Source: an uncultured bacterium (GTDB lineage: Bacteria; Eisenbacteria; RBG-16-71-46; CAZAMP01). From it: a stretch of 64,000 bases of DNA. Location of the stretch: assembly GCA_964486455.1 (NCBI GenBank), contig CAZAMP010000018.1, positions 14,971 to 78,970 on the forward strand. Reading direction: 5' to 3'. The notes under the pieces were generated by a model, which searched no databases, was not told where the DNA came from, and saw nothing but the letters and a program-made list of their open reading frames with translations. The translations under genes were made by a program, and so were the position numbers. Below, piece after piece: positions 590-36,365 of this stretch (position 1 is its first letter; each line of letters opens with the position of its first letter).

Positions 590-1702
590 CTATCTTCGGA
601 AGCGGCCCTTGAGCGCACCCCACCCCGTTCGCTCAATCGGCACCGACGTGTCGACGAGCCCCACGTACTCTTCATCGATCGCGTCGCGCGGCATGGCACC
701 GCACTCGGCAAGCACCGCGGCGAGCGCGGCGGCGGCCGCCATCTCGGTGACGGGCGGTGCGGGCCAGCGAGTCTCCGCCGTCGCGTCGATCTGAGTTTCC
801 GTTGGGATGATGTTCCCCTCCAGATAGACCTCGGTGCTCGACGTCAGGACGATCGCGAGACTCTCGTCGCTCCGTTCACCCGGCGCGTAGACGTTCTTGA
901 CGAGATTGCCCATCGCGTAGTGGCGAAAGCGGGTCCCGTAGCCGGGGTCGCCTCCCCAATCGTCAACGGGCGGGTCCCAATCGGCGACGACGTTGTTCAC
1001 GAGATCGACGACGCCACAGTCGTGAATCTGCGGGTTTCGTTCGTCGCCGAGGACCAGCAGGTTGTGGTGGATCGATATCCGCTCGCACACGCACTCAGGG
1101 CACTCGCCCTGGTAGTGCCGATAGACGTACATGTTCTTGTGGTTGTCGGCCAGCAGGCACCACTGCACGGTGATGTCGCGCGCATCCTCGATGATGTCGA
1201 TGTTCCCGTCGCCCGCCCGCCGGAACGAGCAGTGATCGATGACGATGTCATGGGCGCCCCGCCCGATCTGGAGATTGTCGTGTCCGCCGTCGAAGCGGAG
1301 ATGGTGCAGGACGAAGTCGTGTGCCGTGTCGGGAGCGGTTGAAACCAGCCGGATCAGATCGAACGCACCGGGCACCGGCGGGCTGATCGTGATCCCGGGG
1401 TCGGGAGCGGTCGAGCCGTCGATCGTGACGTGATGATTGGTCAAGCGGATGGGCGACTCGAGGACGATCGTCCCACTGACGGCGAACCGTATGTCCCGAT
1501 TGGACTCCGAAAGGGCGTCCCGGAGTGTGCCGGGACCGTCGTCCGCGAGGCTGTCGACCACATAGACTGTTCCGCCCGCCCCGCCCTCGGTGTCGGCGCC
1601 GAACCCCTCCAGCGGCCGCCCCCCCAGCGGATCGGCGAACGGGGCGCTGACCCCAACCACAAGCCACGCAAGCAGTAACGCGCTACAGGATTTTTCCCGC
1701 AC
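590..1702 (-). CDS. Secreted right-handed beta-helix protein, pectate-lyase (PL1)-like polysaccharide lyase or epimerase candidate
   Basis: N-terminal signal peptide (MREKSCSALLLAWLVVGVSA). Repetitive beta-helix rungs (NIDIIEDARDITVQWC, HHNLLVLGDERNPQ, VVDLVNNVV) resemble the PL1 catalytic region. Family assigned by motif recall only. Confidence 0.5.
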   Translation of the reverse strand: MREKSCSALLLAWLVVGVSAPFADPLGGRPLEGFGADTEGGAGGTVYVVDSLADDGPGTLRDALSESNRDIRFAVSGTIVLESPIRLTNHHVTIDGSTAPDPGITISPPVPGAFDLIRLVSTAPDTAHDFVLHHLRFDGGHDNLQIGRGAHDIVIDHCSFRRAGDGNIDIIEDARDITVQWCLLADNHKNMYVYRHYQGECPECVCERISIHHNLLVLGDERNPQIHDCGVVDLVNNVVADWDPPVDDWGGDPGYGTRFRHYAMGNLVKNVYAPGERSDESLAIVLTSSTEVYLEGNIIPTETQIDATAETRWPAPPVTEMAAAAALAAVLAECGAMPRDAIDEEYVGLVDTSVPIERTGWGALKGRFRR

Positions 1703-7617: not shown

Positions 7618-10326
7618 ATGCATAGGAGCAATCAAGTGCTATCGCGCACGATCATCATCAGTCTCAGCATCGCAGTCCTCGTCGCCGTCGCGGCGGGACC
7701 GGGCTTCGGGTTGACCGTTCGTTCGAGTCACCCGCGCATGTTCGTGTTGCCCGAAGACCTTCCGAAGGTCCGCGCGCGGTGCGCGATCCCCGACGGCAAC
7801 AACCAAGCGCAATACCCGAACGAGTGGAGCACGCATCTCGACCTCTACGAGCAGCTCACCGGGATGGTGGACGACTACCCATCGACGATTCCGGTCTGGG
7901 ACACGGCCGCCAACGGCACCAAGATGGCGAACCTTGCGACGATGTACCTTCTGAACTCGCATCGCTCTCAGGGAAACTCGTACCGCGAGAAGTTCATCGA
8001 GTGGTGGCGCGGAACGCTCGTCTACTCACGCGACCGGAATGGCGGCATCATCGGGCGCATCCTCTCCGGTAACGGGTGGGGCAAGGACGCGAACTGGTCG
8101 TACTGGACGTACGCGTACGACGCGGTCTACAACGCGCTCAGCTCCGACCATGCGCTTCGTGACAGCATCAGCACGCTCATCGGCCGGCAGGTCGAGGTAG
8201 CCTGGGACTCCCCCGACTACTACGAGGATCCGTTCTACAACGCGCCGTGGACCTCGGACGGGCTCCTCGGCGCCTGTCTCGCCGTCAAGGGCGACTATGG
8301 CGCGCGCGCGTGGAACCGCATCGAGCAGGAATTCGACGACTGGCTCGACCACGTCCATGAACGGAAGCTCGAGCAGAATCTGGCGCGGGTGTTGAACTAC
8401 CAGGGCCAGTATCCGATGTGCGGCGGCTACAAGAACCGGCGCATCAAGGAAGACGTGACGACCGCGCTCGCCTGGCGGACCGCCGTCACGGACGAGGACC
8501 CGTTCTTCGAGCACGCCGATCACTTCCGGCAGATCGATGATGCCTATCTCTGGCGGCTTCGCGCGAACTTCCGCGAGTCGGACTGCACCGGAGACGGCCG
8601 TCTCATCGGTCTGGTTGACGACACGCAGTGGCTCTACACGTATCCGTCCGCCTCGATCGACGAGAACGGCGAGGCGCTGTGGGTCCTCGACGAAACGGAA
8701 GAGCAGACCACCGCCGCCAGCGGAAACAAAGAGGTGTGGTTCCGCATCCTCTTCGACGACCGCTCGGTCCAGCGCGTGAACCCCGAGTCGTCGATGCAGA
8801 CGAACATCAAGCACTTCGGGGACCTGACCGTCGAGGACGGACGCACGTCGGAGTACACGTTCATTCGCAGCGACTGGAACTTCAACGTGAACGATCAGAA
8901 CTCCGTCTTCCTATCGTTCTTCTGCGGCCCGACGCTCGGCTGTCACGAGCACGGCGGGTCACAGGGACATCTCGCGATCTTTCGCGGCGATGACGTGATT
9001 TCGGCCCACGCGGGTCTCTACGATCGCCCCGAGAACCGTCACTCGAAGCGGTACGCCGCGCAGACCGTTTCGTACAACACGATCCTGGTCGCCGACCCCG
9101 ACAACCCGTACATCGCGGGCGAGACGGATTCGCTTCGCTACCTCATGCAGCTCGAGGGATGCCAGTTCGAGGCCGAGCGCGTGAACTGGGAGAGCTGCCA
9201 CCTGAACGCGCCGGACAAGCCGTTTCGGGAGGACTACATCCACGGAGGGGTCGACCGCCTGGAACAACTCGAGAACGGCGACACATATCTGCACGCCGAC
9301 TTCACGCGCGCCTACCCCAGCCCGCTCGCGCCCAACGACTGGCCGGACGGCGCGACGGTCGAGAACGCCACCCGTCAGGTGATGCTCGAGGCCGGGACGT
9401 TCGTCGTGGTGTGCGACCGCGTAACCTCCGTCAATCCGAACGCCGTCAAGCGTGTCCGGTGGCATTGCCCCAACCCGAACAGCTTCGTGCTGATCGACGG
9501 TTCCTGGACCGGGGGGACGCCGCCCTACACCGTGATCTACGGCGGAACGCCGGGGCAGTGGAGCACGGACGCCGTCCGGATTCGTTGGGACAGCTGGATC
9601 GACGATGTGGTAGGCGACTCCCGCATGTTCGGCACGATCCTCTACCCGGTCCCGGCCGCATCCGGCGGACCCGGACGAAAGCTCGTGCGCGTCGGCGGCT
9701 CGAATTCGTCCGGCGAGTGGAACATGGGCCGCACGTCGGGCGACAAGCCGTGCTGCGACGACCACAACGACGCGGACAACAGCTACGAGTTCTGGCTGCC
9801 CGAGGCGGAGTTCAATCAGAAGGCCCGCGCCCGAAACTGCTCGGGCGACTGCCAGACCGGCACGAGCGGCAACACCGAGCGATCGAACGGTTCCTACGGC
9901 TTCTGGGTCCTCGACACGGAAGCCACGGGCTGGAAGGACCACGTGTTCCTCCACGCTTTCGAAATCACGGCCAAGTCGCAGTCGCAGCCGACGATGATCG
10001 ACTACTTGGATGATGTCGACGCCGAGCACATCGGCTGTGAGATCCAGCTCGCCGGCACGAGCCGCATCAACGTCTTTAGCCGCGACGAAGAGCCGGACAT
10101 CCAGATCAGCTACCAGAGCTCGCTGCTCACACCGATCCAACACCTCATCGCGGACCTCGTGCCGGGACTGTATCTCGTCGAGGAACTGACGTCGGGGTTC
10201 ACGGCCCAGGTGACGGTGCGTGATCAATCGAACGTCGCGTCGTTCGAGACGCCGTCGGGCGGCACGTTCCGGGTAACGCGGATCGCGGGTGGGGGCGACG
10301 TAGCGCGCGTCGTTACCGCCGACTGA
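7618..10326 (+). CDS. Secreted heparinase II/III-like family protein (polysaccharide lyase or uronyl C5-epimerase candidate)
   Basis: N-terminal signal/TM, 902 aa. C-terminal region FFCGPTLGCHEHGGSQGHLAIFRGDDVISAHAGLYD matches the His-rich motif of the heparinase II/III C-terminal beta-sandwich domain. A possible GTG start at 7636 follows an AGGAG. Confidence 0.6.
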   Translation: MHRSNQVLSRTIIISLSIAVLVAVAAGPGFGLTVRSSHPRMFVLPEDLPKVRARCAIPDGNNQAQYPNEWSTHLDLYEQLTGMVDDYPSTIPVWDTAANGTKMANLATMYLLNSHRSQGNSYREKFIEWWRGTLVYSRDRNGGIIGRILSGNGWGKDANWSYWTYAYDAVYNALSSDHALRDSISTLIGRQVEVAWDSPDYYEDPFYNAPWTSDGLLGACLAVKGDYGARAWNRIEQEFDDWLDHVHERKLEQNLARVLNYQGQYPMCGGYKNRRIKEDVTTALAWRTAVTDEDPFFEHADHFRQIDDAYLWRLRANFRESDCTGDGRLIGLVDDTQWLYTYPSASIDENGEALWVLDETEEQTTAASGNKEVWFRILFDDRSVQRVNPESSMQTNIKHFGDLTVEDGRTSEYTFIRSDWNFNVNDQNSVFLSFFCGPTLGCHEHGGSQGHLAIFRGDDVISAHAGLYDRPENRHSKRYAAQTVSYNTILVADPDNPYIAGETDSLRYLMQLEGCQFEAERVNWESCHLNAPDKPFREDYIHGGVDRLEQLENGDTYLHADFTRAYPSPLAPNDWPDGATVENATRQVMLEAGTFVVVCDRVTSVNPNAVKRVRWHCPNPNSFVLIDGSWTGGTPPYTVIYGGTPGQWSTDAVRIRWDSWIDDVVGDSRMFGTILYPVPAASGGPGRKLVRVGGSNSSGEWNMGRTSGDKPCCDDHNDADNSYEFWLPEAEFNQKARARNCSGDCQTGTSGNTERSNGSYGFWVLDTEATGWKDHVFLHAFEITAKSQSQPTMIDYLDDVDAEHIGCEIQLAGTSRINVFSRDEEPDIQISYQSSLLTPIQHLIADLVPGLYLVEELTSGFTAQVTVRDQSNVASFETPSGGTFRVTRIAGGGDVARVVTAD

Positions 10327-10335
10327 GGCCGGATC

Positions 10336-11469
10336 ATGTCGGACGGTCCCCTCAAAATCCTCTTTCTGGCCGCGCCGTCGATGCCGCACGCGCGCCGCTG
10401 GATCGCGCAGCTCCAAGAGCGCGGCCATGAGGTGCGCGCGGCAACGCTGCACGAGATCCCGCCGGGGAACGCGGACCACACGATCGCGCTCAGAACACGC
10501 GGCGACGTGTCGCGTCCGACGGGCCCGAAAGACATCCTCGCGGCTATCCGTCCGCTCCGCCGGATGATCGCGTCGTTCGAGCCGGATCTCACGATCGCGT
10601 ACTACATGACCTCGTACGGCCTGCTGGCGGCACTCGTGAACGCGCCGTGCGTCATCGGCGCCACGGCGGGCGGCGACGTGCTCGTGGATCCGTATGACAG
10701 CCTCTTTCAGCGCATCCGCAACCGATTCATCCTCGCGATCAGCTTGGGTCACGCCAAAAAGGTCCTGGCCTGGGCGCCGCACGTGGCCGCGCGTCTACGG
10801 GAACTGGGTGTTCCGGAGGGGCGCATCTTCATCCAGCCGCGCGGCGTGGACCTCGAGAAATTCAAGCCCGCTAGCGGTCGGAGCAGTTCGCGGACCGTGA
10901 ACATCCTGTCGCTTCGGCAGTTCAAACCGCTCTATGAGATTCCGACGCTGGTGCGCGCGCTCGGCCGGCTGGACGACGACAACCTCACGTTTTCGGCCGC
11001 GTTGGTCGGTGATGGCCCGGAGCATCCTCGCATCGAGGAGATGGTCCGGGAGATGGGGCTCGACGACCGCGTGATCCTCCCGGGAACCGAGGACGAAAGC
11101 GGTGTCATCGAACGGCTCGGGAAAAGTGATATCTACGTATCCACGTCGTCGACCGACGGTGCGTCGGCGGCGCTTTTCGAGGCGATGGCGATGGGCGCGT
11201 ACCCGATCGTGACGGACATCGCCGCGAACCGAACGTGGATCACGCCGGGCACCAACGGCGATCTCTTCCCGGTCGGCGATGACGACGCGCTTGCCGGCGC
11301 GATCCGGAGCGCGATAGCAGACCCCGTCAGTCGCCGCCGGGCTACGGAGAACAACCTTGCGCTCGTCCGCGATAAGCTCGATTTTCGAAAAAACATGGTC
11401 CGGATCGAGACCGAGATGATGGCGACACTGCGATCGAGGAGAAACGGATGGGACTCGAAGGGCGTCTAG
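10336..11469 (+). CDS. GT4 glycosyltransferase
   Basis: KILFLAAPSMPHARRWIAQLQERGHEV N-terminal and STSSTDGASAALFEAMAMGAYPIVTD C-terminal motifs are typical of GT4. Confidence 0.75.
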   Translation: MSDGPLKILFLAAPSMPHARRWIAQLQERGHEVRAATLHEIPPGNADHTIALRTRGDVSRPTGPKDILAAIRPLRRMIASFEPDLTIAYYMTSYGLLAALVNAPCVIGATAGGDVLVDPYDSLFQRIRNRFILAISLGHAKKVLAWAPHVAARLRELGVPEGRIFIQPRGVDLEKFKPASGRSSSRTVNILSLRQFKPLYEIPTLVRALGRLDDDNLTFSAALVGDGPEHPRIEEMVREMGLDDRVILPGTEDESGVIERLGKSDIYVSTSSTDGASAALFEAMAMGAYPIVTDIAANRTWITPGTNGDLFPVGDDDALAGAIRSAIADPVSRRRATENNLALVRDKLDFRKNMVRIETEMMATLRSRRNGWDSKGV

Positions 11470-12971
11470 TAGATAGACGCGACGCGCTGGAAACGGAACC
11501 GTTTGCGAAAGCATGGAACGAAATGCCGACGCGGCGTGGGATTCAGGCTGACGTCTTCGACAGCCACGCGTGGGTGAGCGCTTGGTGCGACGCGGCGTCG
11601 CCGGAGCAGCGGGACACGCTTCGCATTCCGGCCGTGATGGATGGCGATCGTCCGGTCGCCGTACTGCCGCTCGTCGCCAAGTCGGCCCGCCGCTGGGACT
11701 GGTTGGGACTGGGTAGCCGTCTCCGGTATCGACCCGTTATCGGAACCGAGGCGCCGGACGATTCGATCCTCGACGCGCTCGCCGAGGCGGTGGCCTGCGC
11801 GGGCGCGCGCGAGCTTTCACTCTTGAACCTACCGTCCCGCGACCCGGTCGTGCGGTCGTTCGCGGGCGCGCTCGGACGCGCGGGCTACTTCGTGGCGCTC
11901 CGTGAGGGCTCGAGCGAGTGCCTCGCGACCGTCGACGACGGCTGGGCCGCGCACAAGAAGCGCTTCAAGCGATACGACCGGACCGTCAAGAGCAAGTCGA
12001 ACAAGCTCAAGGGGCTCGGTGAGCTGACCGTCACGATGTACGGCTCCGGCGGCGAACCCATCGCGGACGGCTTTGCGCACTACGCGGATCTTCATGCAAA
12101 GAGCTGGAAGGGAGAGATGAGTCCCTCCACCCGGTCACTCCGCCAGTCGCTGCTCACGCGCACGGCGGAGCTGGGATGGTCGCGCGTCTTCATCCTGGAC
12201 ATCGCCGGCGTTGCCGCCGCCGCTCACGTCTGGTTCCGCGTCGGTGACGTGGCCACGTGGCTCTCGACCGCGTACGACCAACGCCTCGCGGTGACCAGCC
12301 CGGGCACCATCCTCATGTGGCGCGCTCAGGAGCGGATTTTCGACGAGTCGACGCCGAGAATCGTCGATTTCCTGCCCGGTCGAAACCCGCAGAAGGACCA
12401 GCTTGGTCCGGACCGCGAACCGCTCTTGTCGTTGGAGGCGGCGAAGAAGAGCCTCGTGACCGGGATCACGTTCCCGCTCAAGCGCCAGCTCCGACGGGCC
12501 GCGCGCCGCGCGCGCCGCTATCTGCCCAACGGCAAGAAGAACGCGTCGGATGGCCCGGCCACAACGCCGGCGCGGCCGACACGCTCGCTCACGACTGGCC
12601 CGGGCGGTGACCCGATTCCCGCTTCACCCTTGAAGCTGGACGCCGTGACGAAGCGCTATCTCGCCGTCGCCGGAGGATTCCGCGGCACCGACGACATGGC
12701 CGAACACTGGGAAGAGGGCGACTCGTGGTGGCGGATCGGCGAGACACCGACCGCGCTCATTCGCCTCGGCGGTGAGGACGCGACCCCACGCGTGGTCAGG
12801 GAGATCGTTCTCCTGGACGACAACGCGAAAGATCGGGTCGACACGATCATCGGATCGCTGGCGTCCGAGACGGGCGGGGAGCTCACGGCGGATCTGCCGG
12901 CAATGAACGGCGAAGGAACGCCCGGCGAGCCGATCAAGGTGTACCAATCGGTCTTGCCCTGGCCGGGCTAG
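11448..12971 (+). CDS. CelD/FemAB-like transferase with a conserved approximately 110-aa C-terminal extension (paralog A)
   Basis: N-terminal DSHAWVSAWCDAASP CelD-type region, then a basic linker KRQLRRAARRARR, then a C-terminal module (EEGDSWWRIGE...VVREIVLL...VLPWPG) shared with the ORF at 15931. Confidence 0.7.
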   Translation: MGLEGRLVDRRDALETEPFAKAWNEMPTRRGIQADVFDSHAWVSAWCDAASPEQRDTLRIPAVMDGDRPVAVLPLVAKSARRWDWLGLGSRLRYRPVIGTEAPDDSILDALAEAVACAGARELSLLNLPSRDPVVRSFAGALGRAGYFVALREGSSECLATVDDGWAAHKKRFKRYDRTVKSKSNKLKGLGELTVTMYGSGGEPIADGFAHYADLHAKSWKGEMSPSTRSLRQSLLTRTAELGWSRVFILDIAGVAAAAHVWFRVGDVATWLSTAYDQRLAVTSPGTILMWRAQERIFDESTPRIVDFLPGRNPQKDQLGPDREPLLSLEAAKKSLVTGITFPLKRQLRRAARRARRYLPNGKKNASDGPATTPARPTRSLTTGPGGDPIPASPLKLDAVTKRYLAVAGGFRGTDDMAEHWEEGDSWWRIGETPTALIRLGGEDATPRVVREIVLLDDNAKDRVDTIIGSLASETGGELTADLPAMNGEGTPGEPIKVYQSVLPWPG

Positions 12972-13220
12972 TGCTGCCGGGGTAGCGCGATCCCGCGGCA
13001 GTACGGGCCTGGGCCACGCGGCTACGTTCTCCGCTTTTCGCCGGACCCGAAAATCCACCGAAAATTGTACCCAGGTACAAACTTAACTCACATTTTAACA
13101 ACAAGTTAAGGGATGGGCGTCGACAGGGGTGTCGGCTTTTTGACACTGCACAAAGCGCCTTGGAGCGACGGCAGGTGCCGCTCTGTCGGGTATCGCCCTA
13201 TCGAGGTCGGCGCCTGTGGA

Positions 13221-14216
13221 TTATTGCTCGCCGCGCTCGGCGTACTGAAGGGTGGTAACGGGAAGCTGGTCGCGGATCTCTCTCGCGAGAAGCTCCGTGA
13301 ACAGCGTCGAGCCGCGGCTGTTCAGATGGCTTCGATCGCGGAAGAACTCCGGATCCTGAAATGACGGATGGGCGGTCCCGTCGACCGCGAGGTACGGGAC
13401 ACATTCTTCGCGGGCCAGCGCGGTGTAGGCGGTTCGGGCCGGTCCGGCGTCGTGCTCCTCCGGATCATCCGCCCCCCGGTCACGGTGCTCGAAGCGCGGG
13501 CTCGTCACCAGCACCACCTGAACGCCGTGCTCCCGCGCCGTGGCGATGAAGTCGCGATACGTCTCGATGAGCTCGGGCCGAATCTCGGGCGGCGTCTCCC
13601 CCGCGTTCCTCCGGGCCTGCTCCTCGAGCTCATGCGCTTGCATCGTCCCGTCGAGCGGCACGAAGCCATCGTATCCCTTCTCGTTCGGGAACGAGAGATT
13701 GCGAACGATCGGCCCGATCAACGAATTGTAGCGGTAGATCCATGACTGAAGCTTGAAACCCGCAAACCGCCCGGCACCCTCAAGGATCTCATCGACGTCC
13801 GGGTTTCGGCCGTAGTAGGGCGCGAACATCGAGGCGCGCGTGGCGTCCTGCCGGTAGAGATCGCGCGGTTCCGTGTGGAGGATGAAGAGCTTCGCCGAGT
13901 TTTCACGGTCGAGCAGCAGAGACTGAAGCATGCGTCCGTAGAGGATCCCCTGCCCGTCACACCCCGCGTTGTATGCCGTGTATCCCAGCTCCCGCGTGAG
14001 CACGCGCGGATCGATGTGGTGGACCGCTCTCGAGCTTCCGAAGATGAAGATCTCGGCATCGCTCTGATCACACGCACGGTTGATGAGACCGACCGTCTCT
14101 CCGGTCTTGACCTTAGTGAGCGCGGACCGGAGGAGCAGCCCGACCGCCCGATCGATGATCACGAGACCGGCTATGAAGATCAGACTGCTGATGATTGCCC
14201 TGCGCCACATGTTCAT
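13221..14216 (-). CDS. Membrane-anchored SGNH/DltD-AlgX-like protein, probable periplasmic partner of the MBOAT O-acyltransferase
   Basis: N-terminal TM anchor, IFIFGSSRA motif (DltD-like GSS), located immediately downstream of the MBOAT gene on the same strand. Confidence 0.5.
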   Translation of the reverse strand: MNMWRRAIISSLIFIAGLVIIDRAVGLLLRSALTKVKTGETVGLINRACDQSDAEIFIFGSSRAVHHIDPRVLTRELGYTAYNAGCDGQGILYGRMLQSLLLDRENSAKLFILHTEPRDLYRQDATRASMFAPYYGRNPDVDEILEGAGRFAGFKLQSWIYRYNSLIGPIVRNLSFPNEKGYDGFVPLDGTMQAHELEEQARRNAGETPPEIRPELIETYRDFIATAREHGVQVVLVTSPRFEHRDRGADDPEEHDAGPARTAYTALAREECVPYLAVDGTAHPSFQDPEFFRDRSHLNSRGSTLFTELLAREIRDQLPVTTLQYAERGEQ

Positions 14217-14252
14217 CGTGCTCCTAAACGATCTCCGGAAGTCATACCGCCC

Positions 14253-15677
14253 CTAGAACTGGAAGTAGATGAACTGGCTTCCCCCGTCCACCGCGAGGAG
14301 GCCAATACCGACGATCAGACCATACCAGCACGCCCACCGAAGCCCTATCGGATAGCGCGCGATCGTCTCGCGCACGCTTCCCACCCGCTCCTGCATGACG
14401 TGCACGGCGAGGAGGATCGCGACGCCAAGCGTACCGTAGGTGAGCGTCATCGGATCAATGAACGGTTTGCCCGTCTCGGTCAGGATGCTCGCAATGATCG
14501 TCGTCGCGTCCGAGAGCGATCCCGCCCTGAAGAATATCCAGCTGAGGCACACCAGATGGAACGTTCCGACGATGCGGATCCCGTCCCACAGCCAGTTCAG
14601 CGATTTCGTCCGGTCGTAAAGACGCTGGATCATGGGATCGGTCATCCGCGAGATCGACAGCATCACGCCCTGGAGCCCGCCCCAGATCACGAAGTTCCAG
14701 CTCGCGCCGTGCCAGAGCCCGCCGAGAAGCATCGTGATCATCAGGTTCACGTAGGTGCGGTTCACGCCGTAGCGGTTGCCGCCCAGCGGAATGTAGAGAT
14801 AGTCCCGAAGCCACGACGAAAGCGAGATGTGCCACCGCCTCCAGAAATCCGTGATGCTCGTCGCGAAGTAAGGGCGGCGGAAGTTCAACATGATGTCGTA
14901 ACCGAGCACGCGCGCCGATCCGATGGCGATGTCGGAATAGCCCGAGAAGTCGCAGTAGATCTGAAACGCGAAGAGGTACGTCGCCAGCAAGAACGACGGC
15001 CCCTCGTGCGCGGGTACGTTGTTGTAGATCGAGTCCACGTAGAGTGCCAGCCGGTCGGCGATGACGACCTTCTTGAACAGCCCCCAGAGGACGAGCTGGA
15101 GTCCGCTCGTCACGCGGTGCCAGTCGATCCGTTTGACCCGATCGATCTGAGGCAGGAGGTTTTTCGCCCGCTCGATGGGCCCAGCGACGAGCTGCGGGAA
15201 GAATGCCACGTAGAGCGCGAAGCGCCCGAAGTGCCGCTCGGGCTCGATCTTCTTGCGATAGAGATCGATCGTGTAGCTCAGGGTCTGGAACGTGTAGAAG
15301 GAAATGCCGACCGGGAGCAGCACGTGGAGCGGTGGGACACTCCAGTTGAGCCCGATCGACGTGCAGAACTGCATCGCGCTCTCGTTGAAGAAATTCCAGT
15401 ACTTGAACGCGAAGAGCAGCCCGAGGTTCGTCGTGAGGCTGGCCAGAAGAAGCAAGCGCCGCCCCCGCGGTGATGGCTCTCTCGCCATCCCGAGACCGGC
15501 GAAGTAGTCGACGACGGTCGATAGAATGATCAGCCCGATATACGCCGCGTTCCAGCTCATGTAGAAGAAGTAGCTGGCCACGAGCAGCATGACCCAACGG
15601 AAGCGATGCGGCAGGAGGAAGTGCAACGCGACCACGGTCGGGAAGAAGAGCAGATACTCTATCGAGTTGAATAGCAT
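14253..15677 (-). CDS. MBOAT family O-acyltransferase (AlgI/DltB-like)
   Basis: Start trimmed to MLFNSIEYLLFF, the canonical MBOAT N-terminus. The conserved His region WHISLSSWLRDYLYIPLGGNR is present. The 30 codons upstream in the called ORF are unlikely to be coding. Confidence 0.8.
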   Translation of the reverse strand: MLFNSIEYLLFFPTVVALHFLLPHRFRWVMLLVASYFFYMSWNAAYIGLIILSTVVDYFAGLGMAREPSPRGRRLLLLASLTTNLGLLFAFKYWNFFNESAMQFCTSIGLNWSVPPLHVLLPVGISFYTFQTLSYTIDLYRKKIEPERHFGRFALYVAFFPQLVAGPIERAKNLLPQIDRVKRIDWHRVTSGLQLVLWGLFKKVVIADRLALYVDSIYNNVPAHEGPSFLLATYLFAFQIYCDFSGYSDIAIGSARVLGYDIMLNFRRPYFATSITDFWRRWHISLSSWLRDYLYIPLGGNRYGVNRTYVNLMITMLLGGLWHGASWNFVIWGGLQGVMLSISRMTDPMIQRLYDRTKSLNWLWDGIRIVGTFHLVCLSWIFFRAGSLSDATTIIASILTETGKPFIDPMTLTYGTLGVAILLAVHVMQERVGSVRETIARYPIGLRWACWYGLIVGIGLLAVDGGSQFIYFQF

Positions 15678-15930
15678 GCGATTCCTCGGTGATGGCCCTG
15701 CTGGAACAGTAGGCCGTCGCGCCGATCTCCGTCCGCGGTCGTAACGATCATGGACCCCGTGACACACATAATGATAGATCTAACTATCGACCTAAAAGCG
15801 TGCGAAGATTAGCCCAAGCATCCGAGAGATCCAAGCGGGGCTGGCGACCAATGGCATCCCCGTGATATTCAGATGGGCAACTCTACATACGATAACCGGG
15901 AAGCGACCGAGCCAGGAGTAGCGTGAGCGA

Positions 15931-17469
15931 ATGGGACTTCAGGCACGAACGTTCGACAACCTGGATGCGCTCGAGCCGATGGCCGACGCGTGGAACGCGC
16001 TTCCGCCGGCCCGCGGCCTCCATGCGGACATCTTCGACAGCCATGCCTGGTTCTCGACGTGGATGGAAGCCCACGGCCCGAAGCCGGGCTCGGTGCTTTC
16101 GATCCCCGCCGTGATCGAGGGGGACGCCCCGCGGGCACTCTTGCCCCTTCTCCGTCATCCGTCGGGCCGATTCGAGGGGGCCGGCGTGGGGGTGCGGCCG
16201 AGATACCGCCCCATCATCGGAACGGAGGAGCCCGATCCGGAAGCGTTTGGTCTCCTGACCGACGAGGTCGCCCGCGCGGGCGCAAAGGATCTCACGATCC
16301 TGAATCTCCCGTCACGGGACCCCGCCACCGAGGCGCTCCGGAGCGCGCTCGAGAAGTCCGGCTACCGCGTCCTCATCCGCGAGGGCAAGGAAGAGTGCAT
16401 CGCGAGCGTGGCCGACAGCTGGGACCTACACCGAAAGCCGCTCAAGAGTGTCGAGAAGAACGTCAAGCGATCGGTCAACCGCGCCAAGCGGCTGGGCGAG
16501 CTCGAGCTGGAGACGTTCGTCCCCGGTGGACGTCCGGCGCGGGATGCGCTTCAGACCTACGTGGACCTTCATCCCCATAGCTGGAAAGGCGCGGCCCCCG
16601 AGTCCACGGTAATCCGCTGGCAGGGCCTCATGGACCGAACCCAGCCGCTCGACTGGCCGCACGCGTACGTGCTCAAGATCTCCGGCATTCCGGCGGCGGC
16701 CATCACGTTCTTCTGCGTCGGCCCCGTCGCGATCGGCTATCGGAACGTCTACGACCAGCGAATGGCCGCGATCAGTCCCGGATCGATCCTCATGTGGTGG
16801 GCCCACGAGGACCTCATCAAACGGGTGCCGCTCAAGACGATCGACTACTTACCCGGGCGCGGCGCGCAGAAAGACCACTTCACCCAGATGTGCCCGAGAC
16901 TCTTGCTTCTGGAAGCCGTGAAGAAGACCGTTCTCTCCCCGCTCCTCTTTCCACTTCGGCGACAGCTTCGTCGGCTGCAACGTGCGAGAAGGGCCCGGCA
17001 GACGGACCAGCGCTGGCAGAAACCCGAGGAGACGGCTTCCGCCGAGACGCACACTCGGACGGTCACGGCGGAAGGGAAAGCCGCCGGTTACTCTATCTCG
17101 CCCCTCGAGATCGACAAGACGATCGAGCTGTACCTCTCGGTGTCGGGCCGCCACCGCGGCCTCAAGCAGATGACCGACCTCTGGTCGGAAGGAGACAGCT
17201 GGTGGCAGATCGGTGACGATCAAAGCGGAGAGTTGCCGATCGCTCTCGTCCGGCTGGGGTCTGATGCCGAGACGCCAAGACTGGTCCGGGAGATCATCCT
17301 CGTCGCCGGCGAAGCGGAGACAATCGACGGGGTGATCGAATCTCTCGCCACGGGCGTCGGCTCACCGGTCACGGCCGTGTTGCCCGACGAGCAGGGCGAG
17401 GCGGGGATACCGATTCCGGTGCACGAGGCGATCTTGCCCTGGCCCGAGCAATCCAAGTCACCCGCGTGA
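15931..17469 (+). CDS. CelD/FemAB-like transferase with a conserved C-terminal extension (paralog B)
   Basis: Collinear with 11448..12971 (DSHAWFSTWMEAHGP...; C-terminus SEGDSWWQIGD...LVREIILV...ILPWPE). Confidence 0.7.
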   Translation: MGLQARTFDNLDALEPMADAWNALPPARGLHADIFDSHAWFSTWMEAHGPKPGSVLSIPAVIEGDAPRALLPLLRHPSGRFEGAGVGVRPRYRPIIGTEEPDPEAFGLLTDEVARAGAKDLTILNLPSRDPATEALRSALEKSGYRVLIREGKEECIASVADSWDLHRKPLKSVEKNVKRSVNRAKRLGELELETFVPGGRPARDALQTYVDLHPHSWKGAAPESTVIRWQGLMDRTQPLDWPHAYVLKISGIPAAAITFFCVGPVAIGYRNVYDQRMAAISPGSILMWWAHEDLIKRVPLKTIDYLPGRGAQKDHFTQMCPRLLLLEAVKKTVLSPLLFPLRRQLRRLQRARRARQTDQRWQKPEETASAETHTRTVTAEGKAAGYSISPLEIDKTIELYLSVSGRHRGLKQMTDLWSEGDSWWQIGDDQSGELPIALVRLGSDAETPRLVREIILVAGEAETIDGVIESLATGVGSPVTAVLPDEQGEAGIPIPVHEAILPWPEQSKSPA

Positions 17470-17489: not shown

Positions 17490-18569
17490 CTACCTGAGCA
17501 ACCGCCGCTTGAGCGTCATCGCCTGCCGCATGAGATCCAGCACCGCCTTGCTCACCGGACGGAGTGTCTTCTGCCACGACCCGATCATGTGAACGTAGTC
17601 GCCCGCGAACTCGTGCTTGAACTTCCAGACGGTGAAGTTCGGGTGCTCCGGCTCCGGCTCGGGGCCGGGGCTCCCACCGAAGTTGTAGATTCGCTTCCCC
17701 AGCGAGCGATAGCGGCACATGGCCGTGTAGTGGAGAAACTGACCGGTTTGCGGACAGCCCTTCTCCCGCGCGGCGTCGAGCAGCGCCCCCCAGTGGTAGA
17801 TGGGATTCCCGGTGGCGCCCACGTAGAGATAATTCCGCGGCACGTCGCTGTATCGGGCCACGTAGAGATCGCCCAAACCAGCGCGTGAGAGAGGCAGGAG
17901 CACCTCGCGCGCGAACTCCTCGGGCAGCACTTCGAGCCCCTTGCGGCCGACCATCCCGCGATGGGCTGCGCCGAATGCCTCGTGATCCTCGGGAGAGTCC
18001 GTCCGCTCGACGACGAGCCCTTCTCTGATCGCCTTTCGGATGTGGCGCCGCGGGTTCTTGCCGAACCCCTTGAGCAACTCATCCTCCGAATCGGCGGTGA
18101 GATCGACGAAGTACGTGCCGAGTGGCGAGGCGAAGTCGAAGCCCGCGTTGCGCAACACCGCCTGAAGCGGCTCAGCATACGCGACCGGCGACCCTCCGAT
18201 CTGCCGGGGAATCTGGAGCGAGATCTCGACGACCGACGCGCGCAGCTCGGAAGCGCGTTCGAGGAGCGCCCCGAGAAAGCTCTCGAGGGTCGTCGGATCG
18301 GCCGGATCCGCTAGCGCGATCCCGCCGGACGTGCGAACGAACGGTCCCACGCCCACCCCGGGATCGCGGATGGCGAGAAGCGCGGCGGCCGTGAACGCGA
18401 CGCCGCCTTCACATGCGAGTATCTCCGCGCGGTGGCCGTAGAGATCCAGGGCGCGGGTGTAGAACGACGACTGCCGAACGGTCGAGCTGTCGACCGTCTG
18501 GAGCCATGCGTCCCAATCGTCGTATCGGTCGGGTGACAGAATGGTCATGTTGCTCCCGCTATGGCTCAT
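17490..18569 (-). CDS. FemAB-family protein (aminoacyl-transferase-like GNAT tandem fold)
   Basis: 359 aa with a C-terminal KFKHEFAGDY motif typical of the FemAB family. Last gene of the AsnB-CE4-GT4-FemAB operon. Confidence 0.65.
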   Translation of the reverse strand: MSHSGSNMTILSPDRYDDWDAWLQTVDSSTVRQSSFYTRALDLYGHRAEILACEGGVAFTAAALLAIRDPGVGVGPFVRTSGGIALADPADPTTLESFLGALLERASELRASVVEISLQIPRQIGGSPVAYAEPLQAVLRNAGFDFASPLGTYFVDLTADSEDELLKGFGKNPRRHIRKAIREGLVVERTDSPEDHEAFGAAHRGMVGRKGLEVLPEEFAREVLLPLSRAGLGDLYVARYSDVPRNYLYVGATGNPIYHWGALLDAAREKGCPQTGQFLHYTAMCRYRSLGKRIYNFGGSPGPEPEPEHPNFTVWKFKHEFAGDYVHMIGSWQKTLRPVSKAVLDLMRQAMTLKRRLLR

Positions 18570-19637: not shown

Positions 19638-20633
19638 TTACCCCGTCCCCAGGACGCGGATCAGCATCCGTCCCTGTTCCTCGGAGTTCACGCCGAAACG
19701 GCGCAGCGCGAACGGGTCGCAGTCGGCCCGCACGATACCGCTTTGCGACGTGGTTGCGGTGCGGTAGCCGGCGCGCTCCACCATTGCCCGCACCGCGGCG
19801 TTCTCGTGTTGTCCGCTCCCCGGGTTCGGATAGGAGAAGTGGGTCACGGGACGTCCGATGACCTTCTCGAGGACGGCGCGGCTCTCGATGATCTCACGCT
19901 CGGCCTCGACGAGCGAAACGGCGGTCAGCAGTGGATGTGTGCACGTGTGCGCGCCGATCGTCATTCCGGCGTCGGCCATCTCTCGAAGCTCGTCGGCGGT
20001 CATCATGATTCCGGCATCGTCGGGACGTCCGTTTCCGGACCACGCGACGAGCGCGTCGAGGGCCTCTTCGCGCTCGGGCGCGGAGATCCCGCGAAGCCAC
20101 TGCGTGAGCCGGCGCGTGGACGCGCCCTTCGCCGCCGGGTTCGAGAGATCAACCTCGACGGGTGCCGGACACTCGCCGCGCGGCGAGAACCCGCCGGCGA
20201 AGAGCTGCATCAGCCTCACCGTCCAGACGGCGGGCGCGGGTGAAATGGAGTCCGAAACGATGTAGAACGTCGCCGTCGCCCCATGGCGGCGGAGAATGGG
20301 CAAGGCGTACTGGTAGTTGTCGCGATAGCCGTCGTCGAAGGTGATCACGACCCCGGGGCGCGACCCGGCGGGGCGACCCTTCTCCAGTCGGTCCATCGCG
20401 TCATCCAAGCTGATGATGTCGTAGTGTGACGCGATGCGCTCGATCTGCTCATCGAAGCGCTCGGGATCGAGGCAGATCGTCGTCGAGACGTAGGTCGCCT
20501 CGTCCTGCGGCGCGACGGAGTGGTAGCGCAGGATGATCGTGTTGTGTCGCGAGAAACGGACCTTCGCCACGGCGGACGAGTAGATCATGAACCGCTTCGC
20601 GCGGATCGCGGCCATCCGCATGGGTGATGGCAT
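19638..20633 (-). CDS. Polysaccharide deacetylase (CE4 / NodB homology domain)
   Basis: VITFDDGYRDNYQYALPILRRHGATATFYI (NodB motifs TFDDG and H-x4-H context) and a C-terminal FSYPNPG. Confidence 0.75.
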   Translation of the reverse strand: MPSPMRMAAIRAKRFMIYSSAVAKVRFSRHNTIILRYHSVAPQDEATYVSTTICLDPERFDEQIERIASHYDIISLDDAMDRLEKGRPAGSRPGVVITFDDGYRDNYQYALPILRRHGATATFYIVSDSISPAPAVWTVRLMQLFAGGFSPRGECPAPVEVDLSNPAAKGASTRRLTQWLRGISAPEREEALDALVAWSGNGRPDDAGIMMTADELREMADAGMTIGAHTCTHPLLTAVSLVEAEREIIESRAVLEKVIGRPVTHFSYPNPGSGQHENAAVRAMVERAGYRTATTSQSGIVRADCDPFALRRFGVNSEEQGRMLIRVLGTG

Positions 20634-20636
20634 AGG

Positions 20637-22583
20637 CTAGTGACTCACACTTTCCGCGGTTTGGGGTGACCGGGTCGATCCTGATGTCGGGCCCGATGAG
20701 AAATCCGTTTGCGTGCTCCGCAGAACATCCGTCTTGAACAGAAGCTCCATCGTCAGCACGGTCCAGAGTGCGCGCGCTTCCGCACGCGACAGGCCACCGG
20801 CGTCGGCGAACTCGGACTTGTCGAGGAGCCGCCGGACCCCCCGTCGATCGAAAATGCCACGCTCGGCGCACTCCCGCGATGCGATCACGTCCCGGTACTC
20901 GCCGAGCTTCCTCGGATCCCGGAACCACCGCGCGAGGTCGCCCACAAGCCCCCGATTCGGGATCCATTCGGAACGCGGAATGAAGTGTTCGTAGACACTT
21001 TGCTTCCAGTTCCTCCCGATCCGCTTCCCGTCGGGTCGGTTTGCGAGAAACCCCTGGGCGAACGAGAAAAGTGTAACGTCCTTCAGCGGATAGTCCAGCG
21101 CGAGTCCCAATCGGCGCGCAATGAGGCGCCGGCTGATGAGCGAGCTCGCGAAGAGATGATCATTGAACAGGCACCACCAGCTGTGCCGCTCGGCCAGACG
21201 GTGGCGGCCGACGCCGCGCGCCAGGCCGTCCGTGAAGTGCGGGGCCGGATCGAACGCGGCGCTCCGCCGCCCGAGAAGCGACATCACATTTCGGCCGTTT
21301 CGGAGCGTCCGCTCCGGGCACACCGCGATTCCGGCCAGCTCCTCGGGGCTCAGAGAGAGCAGCCACAGCGGCTCGCGGAGCCGCTTCGGTAGCCACGAGT
21401 GGATCGGGAGAAGCGCCCTGAGGGCGCGAGCGACGAGCGCTCCATGTCGCGACTGACTCGCGCGAATGGCACCGGGGCTGATCGGGGCAAACCCGGAGAT
21501 GGAGCCCGTGCCCATGTCGCCTGTCCAGAGCTGCCCCTCCCGCTGGCCCAGCTCGGAGACCGCGGCCGCCAAGAGCAAATGATTGTAGTACTTGGGTGGA
21601 AAGCCGGTGGCGGCCAGGTACGGCTCCAGGTGGCCCCGGAGATCCAGGTCCTCTTCCATGAACCGTCGGCAGGGGTAGCCGTGCCGGCGAGCGAAGTCGG
21701 CCGCGACGCGCGATTCGTCGAAGCCGGTCCGCTTGCCGATCGTAATCGCCTGGACGTCGGCACCGACCTCCGCGGCGATCGCCATGAGCACGCGGGAATC
21801 CAACCCCCCGCTCGTGAGCAGTGTCACCGCCTGGTTCGGCCTGTAGTTGACCCGAATTCGCACCGCCCGCCGGAGGAGGCCCGTGCCGAGCCGGCGATAG
21901 AGCGGATCGGAAGGGTCCTCGACCGACCCCCCGCGCATCGCGAACTCCGCCAGGTCGATCCGGTGGGGGTGCGTCTCCCCCGGCGCGACGCGGAGCATCT
22001 CATCGCAGTAAAGCCTTCTCACTCCGCGAAAGAGCGTTTGGTCATCCACGGGATTTCGGTTCACGACGTAGTCGACGACACGGCCGGCGTTGATCTCTCG
22101 GCCGAGACCTAGAGCGTCCGAGACGAGCTGTGGGGAGCTGTTCACGACGGCCGTGCCTCCCGCCGTGCCGTAGTAGAGCGTGCGTGAGGAGATCCTATCC
22201 GCGACCACGGTGACCCGAAGCGTCCCCGGAACCAGCTCTTCCCGGCTCACCGGATCGATGCCGGCGACCACGACGGCCACGAAGCGGCCGTTCGCCCGGG
22301 TCAGCTCATCCAGCACGTCGCCGGCGCCGTCACGATGGCCGAGGTGCTCGATGCCGCGGGTGCCAGCCATGTCGGGTGTGAACTCCGAGATCAGCTCGTA
22401 AACATGACCGATGACGACGATTTCCCCGTCGGCGACGGTATAGCGGGCGACCTCGGTTTCGTCGTCCGAAACCCACACGGAGGCGACGCTGGCCTGCCCG
22501 TCCCACCGTCCGACGCAGCGGGCCTTTGCCCCGCTCAAGACGGGGGTATCCTTGTCGGTCCGTGCGTGTACGAGATGGATCAC
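20637..22583 (-). CDS. Asparagine synthetase (AsnB)-family amidotransferase; N-terminal nucleophile Cys apparently absent
   Basis: PP-loop LTSGGLDSRVL is present. The glutaminase-like N-domain is present but starts MIHLVH... and no in-frame Cys2 is available upstream (a stop lies 8 codons upstream). Confidence 0.8.
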   Translation of the reverse strand: MIHLVHARTDKDTPVLSGAKARCVGRWDGQASVASVWVSDDETEVARYTVADGEIVVIGHVYELISEFTPDMAGTRGIEHLGHRDGAGDVLDELTRANGRFVAVVVAGIDPVSREELVPGTLRVTVVADRISSRTLYYGTAGGTAVVNSSPQLVSDALGLGREINAGRVVDYVVNRNPVDDQTLFRGVRRLYCDEMLRVAPGETHPHRIDLAEFAMRGGSVEDPSDPLYRRLGTGLLRRAVRIRVNYRPNQAVTLLTSGGLDSRVLMAIAAEVGADVQAITIGKRTGFDESRVAADFARRHGYPCRRFMEEDLDLRGHLEPYLAATGFPPKYYNHLLLAAAVSELGQREGQLWTGDMGTGSISGFAPISPGAIRASQSRHGALVARALRALLPIHSWLPKRLREPLWLLSLSPEELAGIAVCPERTLRNGRNVMSLLGRRSAAFDPAPHFTDGLARGVGRHRLAERHSWWCLFNDHLFASSLISRRLIARRLGLALDYPLKDVTLFSFAQGFLANRPDGKRIGRNWKQSVYEHFIPRSEWIPNRGLVGDLARWFRDPRKLGEYRDVIASRECAERGIFDRRGVRRLLDKSEFADAGGLSRAEARALWTVLTMELLFKTDVLRSTQTDFSSGPTSGSTRSPQTAESVSH

Positions 22584-22676: not shown

Positions 22677-23882
22677 ATGAGAATCCTCTATATCGTCCAG
22701 TACTACAGCCGTCCCGACGAGCCCGGGGGCAGCCGGCCCTACCAGTTCGCCAAACACTGGACCGCAGCGGGACATGACGTGGAGATCATCACCGGCGCGG
22801 TGAACCACAAGACCGGAAAAGTCCACGAATCTGTCAGCGGTCGGCTGTCCGCGCCCGTACGGGAGGACGGCTTCACGGTGCGTCGCGTGCGGTCGTATCA
22901 CGCCTACAAAGGCAGCATGAACAAACGCTACGTCTCGTTTCTCTCCTACGCCCTGTCCGCCACGCTGATGGCCCCGCGCCGGCCGCGACCCGACGTGATC
23001 TTCGCGTCCTCGACACCGCTCACGACCGGGGCCGCGGGCGTGGTGCTCTCGAAGCTCACTGGGCTGCCGCTCGTGTTCGAGGCGCGCGACCTCTGGCCGA
23101 AAGCGGTCGTCGTCGCCGGGGTCATCGGAACGGGTTGGAAGCTCCGGGCCGCCGAAAAGATGGAGTCGTGGATCTACGACAATGCCGAGCACGTAGTGGT
23201 CGTCTCGCAAGGCGATCGGTTGGAATTGATCGAGCGTGGGCTCGACGCCGAACACGTTCACTGGGTGCCGAACGGCGTCGATGACTGGATGCTCCGGACC
23301 GATCCCCCGCCCGCGCCTGAACGAACGGGCCCGTTCGAGGTCTACTACGTCGGCGCCCACGGCAAGTGGAATCATCTCGATCGACTGCTCGACCTCGCCT
23401 CACGATGCGACGGCTCGATACGGTTCAGCCTCATCGGCGACGGCGATGTGAAGCCCGCGCTGATGGAGCGCGCCCGCCGCGACGGTCTCGCCAACGTGCG
23501 CTTCTTGGACCCGATGCCGAAGGAGCAGGCCTTCCGCGCGCTCGAGTCGGCGCATGCCACGATCGTCGTCTGCGGCACGCACGAGCACTACGAACAGTGG
23601 CTCCCCAACAAAGTTTTCGACTATCTCGCGGCGGGACGACCGATCTTCGTGCTCGGCACGGGCGAGCTGGCGCGGCTCATCGACGACGGCCGCTGTGGCC
23701 TCACGGCTCCGGCGACCGACCTCGACGGTGGGGCGGCGGCTCTCGGAACGCTGGCCGCGAGCGACAGGGCGACCCTGGACGCCATGGGGCGCGCGTCACG
23801 TTTGATCGCGGGTGACCGGTTCGCGAGGAGCATGCTGGCGGATCGGATGATCAACATCTTCGAAAACGCCCGAAGGCAATGA
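22677..23882 (+). CDS. GT4 glycosyltransferase (WcaI/WbuB-like)
   Basis: Start trimmed to MRILYIVQYYSRPDEPGGSRPYQF; the upstream 114 codons overlap the AsnB gene antisense. C-terminal GT-B domain. An alternative start is at 22632. Confidence 0.7.
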   Translation: MRILYIVQYYSRPDEPGGSRPYQFAKHWTAAGHDVEIITGAVNHKTGKVHESVSGRLSAPVREDGFTVRRVRSYHAYKGSMNKRYVSFLSYALSATLMAPRRPRPDVIFASSTPLTTGAAGVVLSKLTGLPLVFEARDLWPKAVVVAGVIGTGWKLRAAEKMESWIYDNAEHVVVVSQGDRLELIERGLDAEHVHWVPNGVDDWMLRTDPPPAPERTGPFEVYYVGAHGKWNHLDRLLDLASRCDGSIRFSLIGDGDVKPALMERARRDGLANVRFLDPMPKEQAFRALESAHATIVVCGTHEHYEQWLPNKVFDYLAAGRPIFVLGTGELARLIDDGRCGLTAPATDLDGGAAALGTLAASDRATLDAMGRASRLIAGDRFARSMLADRMINIFENARRQ

Positions 23883-32218: not shown

Positions 32219-32425
32219 CCGCGGCCGGAGACGGCCGTCGGACGCCCCGTGCAGAGCGATGGTGGCCGCGATAGGTTGACGATTTTTCGCAAGTCGGTAT
32301 AGAATCTATTGACAGTAGATCCCCCTCATCGACCGATCGCCGGTGAGCCGGAACGCCTCGGCTTTGGTGTAACCGGTTACGTAACAACGGATTGCTTGTC
32401 TGCGCCCCGCAACTTCGGAGGGAAA

Positions 32426-35133: not shown

Positions 35134-35436
35134 ACGATTCTCCTTGTCTGTGCGTCTACGGAAATGGCGCGGTGGTGATTGCGTGCGTGGTAGTGAATTA
35201 TGATAAAAATTACAGGAGAATCGCTCGAAAAACAAATCAGAAAGCGCTCACGACAGCTCGAGCGGGCGCGGCTCATCGCTTCCGTCTTCGTGCGCGCTCA
35301 GATGCTAATGCGATCATCTACTGGTTTTCTCGTAGCGCGGACTCACGCACGCTACACGTCGAGTCTTCGTCCCACACGCAGAACACGCTTCCCGTCGTGA
35401 CGAACGCCGTCATATCGACGGAGACAGGTTCACGCA

Positions 35437-36065: not shown

Positions 36066-36365
36066 GTGACTTCGAACCTTGCTTGGCCCGCGCGGCGGTC
36101 GATGCCAGCCGCCAGGCCGTCATCCTCCGATCGTCCCCGACGGACCCTTCGGAGTTCCAGTGGACTATAGAGAAGTGAGCACGTGAGATAAAAGATTACG
36201 TTGCCGATTCAGTTAATACCTGAATCAGGAACTCAGGAACGTGTTTACCATCAGTACGTTGCCCAAGAGCGCCGTCTAATCTATAATTATACTTACAGTT
36301 CATGTGATGCTGGCACGCATACACCGCAGTTCCTCACATCCTGGATGTGTAGAAGGAGCCCACTC

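Follow-up and report, generated by a model that had tools for sequence, protein, structure and literature searches.

We analyzed a 64,000-nt stretch of contig CAZAMP010000018.1 (assembly GCA_964486455.1) from an uncultured bacterium of the Eisenbacteria; we will refer to this whole stretch as the window. Its first ~31 kb are a polysaccharide locus, which encodes a flippase, several GT4 glycosyltransferases, a GT2 glycosyltransferase, a protein of 902 amino acids (aa), two PF01522 deacetylases, an AsnB-like protein, an epimerase, and four Fem/CelD-like proteins. Our subject is a pair of paralogs from this last group, which we will call A and B. Each has three parts: a core of two GNAT (GCN5-related N-acetyltransferase) domains in tandem, a strongly basic α-helix, and a family-specific, usually acidic third GNAT-like domain, which we will call the module. 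A and B lie on either side of two minus-strand genes, for a membrane-bound O-acyltransferase (MBOAT) and an SGNH-like partner. The features of this region are (coordinates are positions in the window):

11448..12971, plus strand: paralog A, a long CelD/Fem-like transferase of 507 aa (open reading frame and translation; PF13480; AlphaFold2 model)
11448..12458, plus strand: tandem-GNAT core of A (aa 1–337), of the Fem/MprF type
12459..12521, plus strand: Arg-rich helix of A (aa 338–358), which includes KRQLRRAARRARR and is helical in the AlphaFold2 model
12573..12968, plus strand: C-terminal module of A (aa 376–507), an acidic, truncated, GNAT-like, family-specific domain
15931..17469, plus strand: paralog B, 512 aa (PF13480; collinear with A; matches the module profile; has an ortholog in locus L001 of a sister genome)
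Within B, plus strand: core (aa 1–335), Arg-rich helix (aa ~336–357, 16936..17001), and module (aa ~374–512, 17050..17466)
14253..15677, minus strand: MBOAT-family O-acyltransferase, 474 aa, AlgI/DltB-like (PF03062, 111.3 bits; TIGR04091 DltB, 161.9 bits)
13221..14216, minus strand: SGNH-like membrane-anchored protein, 331 aa, the partner of the MBOAT (sub-threshold match to Lipase_GDSL_2, plus motifs)

The open reading frames (ORFs) of A and B have a coding-type G+C content at third codon positions (GC3 of 0.82–0.83), and both genes, of 507 and 512 aa, were also predicted by an independent gene caller on four public contigs where the same locus is found (~100% identity). An initial examination of the DNA without database searches (the sequence-only reading) had described A and B as collinear paralogs that share a C-terminal extension, and both descriptions held up. 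Full-length BLASTP alignment found 225 of 511 positions to be identical (44%, E = 7e-136), and the alignment is collinear from Met1 to the LPWP motif. The C-terminal ~115–123 aa, aligned alone, are 47% identical (E = 3e-34), so the similarity of the extensions is significant in its own right. The DNA of the two genes is just 64% identical, over 566 nt. The four motif islands and the basic, Arg-rich linkers that had been pointed out are all at the expected relative positions, in A (KRQLRRAARRARR at 345–357, GDSWWRIGE at 424–432, VVREIVLL at 449–456, DTIIGSLA at 465–472, VLPWPG at 502–507) and in B (RRQLRRLQRARRAR at 343–356, GDSWWQIGD at 421–429, LVREIILV at 451–458, DGVIESLA at 466–473, ILPWPE at 501–506). 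The extension had also been said to be missing from the other CelD-like copies; in a six-frame scan of the window with a profile of the module, only A (E = 1.6e-44) and B (E = 2.1e-41) matched, and the next best hit had E = 0.0034.

The first 22 nt of A (11448..11469) are shared with the 3' end of the GT4 gene upstream (10336..11469), an overlap that suggests that the two genes are translationally coupled. In GCA_975963955.1, a sister genome, the GT4 gene and the ortholog of A are ~65 nt apart and do not overlap.

At the sequence level, A and B fall within PF13480 (Acetyltransf_6, CelD/BcsL-like), with 70.6 bits for A (aa 176–314) and 47.3 bits for B (aa 173–309) against a gathering threshold of 22 bits. 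Pfam scans of A and B found nothing beyond aa 314, and NCBIfam gave nothing useful: no equivalog claims either protein. Neither PF02388 (FemAB) nor TIGR03019 matched A or B in these scans. A search of PDB sequences with the full-length protein also gave nothing usable. Both sequences lack a signal peptide or a transmembrane segment, and A and B are predicted on that basis to be cytoplasmic.

The fold is that of the Fem and MprF proteins. We built an AlphaFold2 model of full-length A with a family alignment of 39 sequences. The model has a mean predicted local distance difference test score (pLDDT) of 94.1 and a predicted template-modeling score (pTM) of 0.91; pLDDT is below 50 only at residues 366–368, in a low-confidence linker that runs from the end of the helix to ~aa 375. 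When known structures were ranked by similarity to this model, FemX (4ii9) scored 18.9, FemA (1lrz) 18.4, Sbb17 (9wqx) 17.7, and another FemX structure (6snr) 16.5. The MprF and L-PGS synthase domains followed at 15–16.4, and single-domain GNATs that depend on coenzyme A (CoA) scored 12 or less. Because of this ranking, we identify aa 1–337, in which two GNAT domains form one fold, as a Fem/MprF-type double GNAT of the CelD/BcsL sequence family. In other words, A and B belong to PF13480 by sequence and to the Fem/MprF tandem-GNAT group by fold. Lys316, near the end of domain 2, is conserved in 98% of the family alignment and might be the counterpart of the catalytic lysine of FemX.

A and B differ from the characterized proteins of both groups. 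They are only 8–16% identical to FemX, FemA, FemB, Sbb17, and the MprF synthase domains (4ii9, 1lrz, 6snr, 6lv0, 4v36; 9wqx for Sbb17). Those enzymes act in the context of peptidoglycan or lipids, while A and B are in an exopolysaccharide (EPS) locus, and in none of those listed does a basic helix lead into a third GNAT-like domain. The CelD/BcsL proteins of PF13480 include UppA and UppQ of Agrobacterium; A and B are above the PF13480 threshold and share with UppA the setting of a polysaccharide locus. (UppA was described as "similar to BcsL"; bioRxiv 10.1101/2021.04.22.440995.) Typical CelD/BcsL members have ~340–390 aa and end after the core, as do the other two copies of the window; A and B continue with the basic helix and then a module of ~130 aa. 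We know of no Fem-type or CelD-type protein that has been described as having a third GNAT-like domain.

We extended the family alignment to 110 sequences. Among these 110 members, the net charge of the basic helix ranges from +3 to +10, with a median of +6. The module is acidic in 89% of the members, with a median net charge of −5 (−9 in A and −13 in B). The pTM of 0.91 for the full-length model suggests a fixed placement of the predicted module against the core.

Three-part proteins of this kind form a small family. A word-index search with A found ~50 homologs, nearly all of 490–550 aa, which cover 96–100% of A; those with a named taxon are from Acidobacteria/Acidobacteriota. This search is not exhaustive: paralog B was absent from the matches for A, despite the pairwise E of 7e-136 and its presence on the same contigs. 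A word-index search with the module of B alone gave nine candidates, none of them significant, which reflects the sensitivity limit of the tool; we rely instead on an exhaustive search with a profile hidden Markov model of the module over 1.84 billion cluster representatives. There were only 62 matches. In all of the full-length matches, the module is at ~aa 385–510 of a protein of ~500 aa. The short matches that we inspected (~90–300 aa) mostly start within the core or the linker and look like N-terminally truncated fragments; three of them (P0068, 127 aa; P0081, 143 aa; and P0093, 117 aa) could be genuine stand-alone module ORFs. One further match, P0103, is spurious: it is a neuropeptide-like repeat protein with FVRIG repeats. 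We found no other module-bearing architecture, and no homolog outside the family, among the 1.84 billion representatives. Apart from the three short ORFs, then, the module is confined to this architecture.

A scan of GTDB species genomes, with the full-length alignment as the query, identified 33 family loci. These are from metagenome-assembled genomes (MAGs) of Acidobacteriota and from Actinomycetota (cultured Embleya species, Streptomyces sp. SID3343, Nocardioides sp. GXQ0305, and Yinghuangia). Loci with two module-bearing copies are found in the window, in L001, in Embleya, in Streptomyces SID3343, in Nocardioides, and in a MAG of Actinomycetota. So we considered that the helix and the module might be a pairing device, which mediates dimerization of A with B or of each protein with itself and explains why two copies recur. 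In favor of this, at least six lineages have such paired genes at one locus, and a domain swap could draw on the opposite charges of the helix and the module. However, many loci from Acidobacteriota have a single copy within 10 kb on either side, and we consider a pairing role unlikely.

What is the module? A prediction for the isolated module (aa 371–507), made from an alignment of 25 sequences, is as confident as that for the full-length protein (pLDDT 95.4, pTM 0.88). The predicted order of its elements is β, β, α, α, β, β, β, α, β, β, β. This is the GNAT order (β1-α1-α2-β2-β3-β4-α3-β5-...-β6-β7) without helix α4. Similarity to known structures is weak: the best Foldseek hit had E = 5e-3, and the matches, with TM scores of 0.44–0.47, were to Eis-like proteins, NMT, and simple GNATs. 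Nearly all of the structural matches listed were GNAT folds, along with two viral cap-binding domains; ACP, SH3, and ACT-type domains were not among them. The sequence-only reading could not assign the extension to a known domain, and neither could we by sequence: aa 338–507 had no match in Pfam (E ≤ 0.1) or NCBIfam (E ≤ 0.01), and a search of PDB with the module profile gave 0 matches at E ≤ 10. Comparing the module to GNAT domains 1 and 2 of the same protein with hhalign gave probabilities of 1.4% or less, with no signal of internal duplication. We take the module to be novel as a sequence family and not as a fold.

Ten positions of the module are at least 90% conserved across the 39 sequences: W421, D425, W427, W428, G431, R439, E452, A472, P504, and W505. 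Of these, W421, D425, W427, G431, R439, E452, and A472 also stand out in the alignment as extended to 110 sequences. Together with the GNAT-like fold, the conservation of E452, which is on strand β4, and of R439 raises the possibility that the module is a third catalytic GNAT, in which case the protein would be bifunctional (for instance, a fusion of an N-acetyltransferase and an aminoacyl transferase). Against this, the Q/R-x-x-G-x-G/A pyrophosphate motif was not found in the β4-α3 loop, and the residues that follow β4, LLDDNAKDRVDT in A and LVAGEAETIDG in B, show no conservation across the aligned family. Minimal GNATs (RibT, 5xxr; YycN, 1ufh) and Eis-type enzymes (2ozg, 4my3, 3sxn), which match the module with the TM scores given above and 5–14% identity, also differ from it in these features, as the module has neither α4 nor the CoA motif. 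(Eis proteins do have a third domain, but it has an SCP2-like fold, not a GNAT fold.) Because helix α4 and the Q/RxxGxG/A loop are missing, we infer that the module is not a CoA-dependent catalytic domain, which makes a third catalytic GNAT quite unlikely. As modeled, the module is probably a degenerate third GNAT-like domain that does not bind CoA.

We also considered that the helix and the module might be a tRNA-binding arm, as a functional substitute for the coiled-coil arm of staphylococcal FemA. The core is of the Fem type and the helix, which directly follows domain 2, is very basic. However, the acidity of the module (median −5, and lower still in the window) would be unfavorable for binding RNA. 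Also, the coiled-coil arm of staphylococcal FemA is inserted within domain 2 and is not a C-terminal domain. A tRNA-binding arm therefore seems very unlikely.

Three other genes of the locus bear on the role of A and B:

19638..20633, minus strand: polysaccharide deacetylase, the most recurrent neighbor of the family (PF01522, 85.7 bits)
17490..18569, minus strand: short FemAB/CelD-like transferase of 359 aa without the module (PF02388, 40.6 bits, and PF13480); syntenic in L001
1743..2906: short CelD-like gene without the module, 387 aa (PF13480); it ends right after the core

Homologs of the deacetylase are near family members in the window and in L001, L002, L011, L016, L017, and L024–L038, which span two phyla; the identification was confirmed with Pfam in Nocardioides and Embleya. 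The window, L001, the P0022 locus, and Nocardioides also have a short CelD-like gene close by. In Embleya scabrispora, the module-bearing pair is found among GT4 genes, an ABC ATPase, and an initiating sugar transferase.

Two of these loci have details of their own. In Nocardioides sp. GXQ0305 (L017, 36..11491), the two family genes flank a block of pafA, FKBP, pafB/pafC, and tatC; the first family gene is divergent from the deacetylase and a short CelD-like gene, and the second is followed by a diacylglycerol-kinase-like gene. In the window, the short Fem-like protein at 17490..18569 ends in a basic tail, ...MTLKRRLLR (...LDLMRQAMTLKRRLLR), which recalls the Arg-containing C-terminal extension of Caulobacter HfsK (discussed below).

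The MBOAT and SGNH-like genes between A and B are an O-acylation pair, as the sequence-only reading had proposed. The MBOAT is above the Pfam threshold. The adjacent partner has a hydrophobic N-terminal segment, a GSS motif at residue 60, and a DRSH motif at residue 294, although its Lipase_GDSL_2 score of 25.4 bits is below the Pfam cut-off of 32.9. The arrangement, an MBOAT followed by a membrane-anchored partner with Ser (GSS) and DxxH motifs, is that of AlgI with AlgJ and AlgX, PatA with PatB, and DltB with DltD. The MBOAT, with 162 bits, is below the DltB equivalog cut-off of 375. In the known systems (AlgI/J/X, PatA/B, and DltB/D), the MBOAT works together with a periplasmic SGNH protein, and their target is polymer that has been exported.

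The same reading held that a segmental duplication had placed one transferase on each side of this pair. Comparison with the sister genome GCA_975963955.1 does not support that claim. A and B are 60% and 59% identical to their respective orthologs in L001 of that genome, and 44–45% identical to each other. Because the orthologs are closer than the paralogs, the duplication predates the split of the two genomes. The gene order in L001 is the 902-aa protein, a GT4, the ortholog of A, the ortholog of B, the short Fem-like protein, a GT4, and the deacetylase. There, A and B are in direct tandem, 84 bp apart, and the locus lacks the MBOAT/SGNH pair. The orthologous cassette (78% identity for the MBOAT and 52% for the SGNH-like protein) is on another contig, directly after the genes for the AsnB-like protein, a PMT_2-like protein, and a second deacetylase. 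Tandem adjacency of A and B is the simplest starting state. Across the 33 other genome loci, an MBOAT or SGNH homolog was never found within 10 kb of a family member.

Conversely, the cassette occurs without the family. The MBOAT and SGNH-like genes are kept together in L042, L043, and L044, and homologs of the MBOAT at 55–78% identity are found in many phyla. In L043 (which has no taxonomic label) and L044 (labeled Myxococcota), an MBOAT with 55–66% identity and the same partner are in polysaccharide loci, and no homolog of A or B was detected within the ~8 kb that were read on each side. Thus, the cassette is a self-contained, widely distributed O-acylation unit whose position differs between close relatives, and its location between A and B is a lineage-specific local rearrangement, not a designed bracket. 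That A and B flank the pair so as to supply or process the substrate for O-acylation, with B and the MBOAT gene sharing a divergent control region, is very improbable: the genes are adjacent, a 253-nt divergent intergenic region (15678..15930) separates B from the MBOAT gene, and the same arrangement is on several metagenomic contigs (though from the same organism, at ~100% identity), but the idea is largely refuted by synteny, by the cassettes that stand alone in other phyla, and by the action of MBOAT and SGNH proteins on exported polymer when A and B have neither a signal peptide nor a transmembrane segment. A cassette that is bracketed by paralogs in one genome did not mirror a conserved design, which is a caution for similar cases.

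Matches to the MBOAT at 55–66% identity are labeled Myxococcota, Planctomycetota, and Calditrichota, and the core genes of the locus are 45–70% identical between the sister genomes. Given that the MBOAT is more conserved than the core genes of the locus, the data are compatible with horizontal spread of the two-gene cassette. At its borders, we found no significant flanking direct or inverted repeats, tRNA genes, Rfam elements, or shift in GC3 (the GC3 of the MBOAT is 0.85, like that of neighboring genes). The 250-nt gap between A and the SGNH-like gene contains an AT-rich stretch of ~60 nt, at roughly 13050–13110, with a CTTAAC...GTTAAG inverted repeat. It lies 5' of another feature:

13119..13146, plus strand: terminator-like hairpin with a T5 tail, ~150 nt past the stop codon of A (consensus match only)

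Rfam has no match in 13050..13146.

Taking the evidence together, we favor a reading that we think is reasonably probable: A and B belong to a three-part Fem-type family that acts on EPS, with the third domain in an accessory role, and the MBOAT/SGNH cassette is a separate unit. We propose that A and B act in the cytoplasm on the repeat unit of the EPS. The co-occurring deacetylase would remove the N-acetyl group from one of the amino sugars in the repeat unit and so expose its amine, and the Fem-like enzymes would re-acylate, or most likely aminoacylate, the exposed amino sugar. We favor an aminoacyl-tRNA as the donor only because tRNA-dependent enzymes have the closest folds. The short and long Fem-like paralogs may act in succession, as FemX, FemA, and FemB do. 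O-acylation of the polymer after export would be the separate task of the MBOAT/SGNH pair.

The weakest step of the proposal concerns the basic helix and the acidic module, which might form an accessory unit for binding the acceptor, or for localization or regulation. The conserved Trp, Asp, and Glu residues of the module would suit a cationic amino-sugar ligand. Localization or regulation would be analogous to the role of the Arg-containing C-terminal extension of HfsK from Caulobacter crescentus. HfsK is a tandem GNAT that modifies the holdfast and is an effector of cyclic di-GMP; its closest solved homolog is FemX, and it has paralogs (PMC5362036; PMC8449245). Its extension, directly after the core, is functionally essential (PMC5362036), and its polysaccharide is also modified by a deacetylase, HfsH (PMC5362036; PMC8449245). 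The likeness of A and B to HfsK is one of architecture: their Arg-rich helix directly follows the tandem-GNAT core and would be the analog of the HfsK extension. That extension has just 25 aa, while A and B continue past the helix into a complete folded domain.

Several points weigh against this proposal. Some family members lie outside an obvious polysaccharide locus: in L003 and L039, the family member adjoins genes for DinB and a major facilitator superfamily transporter, and the second copy in Nocardioides is also outside an obvious glycan context. E452 is on strand β4, at the position of the general base in many GNATs, which could allow some residual catalysis by the module. To our knowledge, neither the donor nor the acceptor has been established for any enzyme of the CelD/BcsL/HfsK type. 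As for the history of the locus, the two genomes fit either a move of the cassette in between A and B here or a move out in the sister genome. Also, neighbor-joining trees gave conflicting answers as to a sister-clade relationship of A and B, so our argument uses only the identities between orthologs and between paralogs.

A bolder version of the proposal is that these are a new class of three-lobed Fem-type enzymes, which aminoacylate de-N-acetylated amino sugars of EPS from aminoacyl-tRNA, with the pseudo-GNAT and the Arg helix as a switch or as a clamp for the acceptor. The switch could be controlled by the membrane or by a nucleotide, as in HfsK; or the unit could grip the cationic deacetylated glycan. 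We consider this version unlikely. If true, it would be a new tRNA-dependent modification of polysaccharides with its own regulatory domain.

Proteins of the tandem-GNAT CelD/BcsL/HfsK type are common in polysaccharide loci. This family adds a well-delimited, confidently folding domain that is not covered by the domain databases and is represented by ~60 sequence clusters from two phyla. The association with a deacetylase and a short Fem-like paralog leads to the hypothesis of deacetylation, followed by re-acylation or aminoacylation, which if confirmed would explain a widespread and uncharacterized kind of EPS decoration. The presence of the family in cultured strains of Embleya and Nocardioides makes this testable by experiment. 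The extra domain and the link to the deacetylase should be useful to specialists rather than startling, and the bracket is incidental.

Marker families of XrtA/PEP-CTERM-associated EPS loci all score far below their equivalog cut-offs in the window (score vs. cut-off: TIGR03019, 18.8 vs. 260; TIGR03088, 151.5 vs. 409; TIGR03006, 19.7 vs. 276; TIGR03108, 50.4 vs. 817). Other genes of the window are less easily placed. The 902-aa protein (7618..10326, plus strand) has no match in Pfam and a faint match in NCBIfam to the heparin lyase HepB (E = 4.6e-4). It is 59% identical to a syntenic protein in the sister genome, and its gene is immediately upstream of the GT4-A operon. The match of the AsnB-like protein (20637..22583, minus strand, 648 aa) to PF00733 is limited to 70 residues, and the protein has no match to a glutamine-amidotransferase domain; in the sister genome, its ortholog (45% identity) adjoins the MBOAT cassette and not the deacetylase. 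Four sizeable ORFs have a GC3 typical of coding sequence and matched nothing in Pfam at E ≤ 1e-3: 23879..26278 (plus strand), 590..1702 (minus strand), 34228..35235 (minus strand), and 54633..55541 (minus strand). The first of these, with 799 aa, lies within the polysaccharide locus. Finally, 32309..34147 and 36201..38396 (both plus strand) encode candidate secreted proteases, one trypsin-like and one a subtilase. Both have an FlgD_ig domain at the C-terminus, and the first also matches, below the threshold, Por_Secre_tail, a sorting signal of the type IX secretion system (T9SS).

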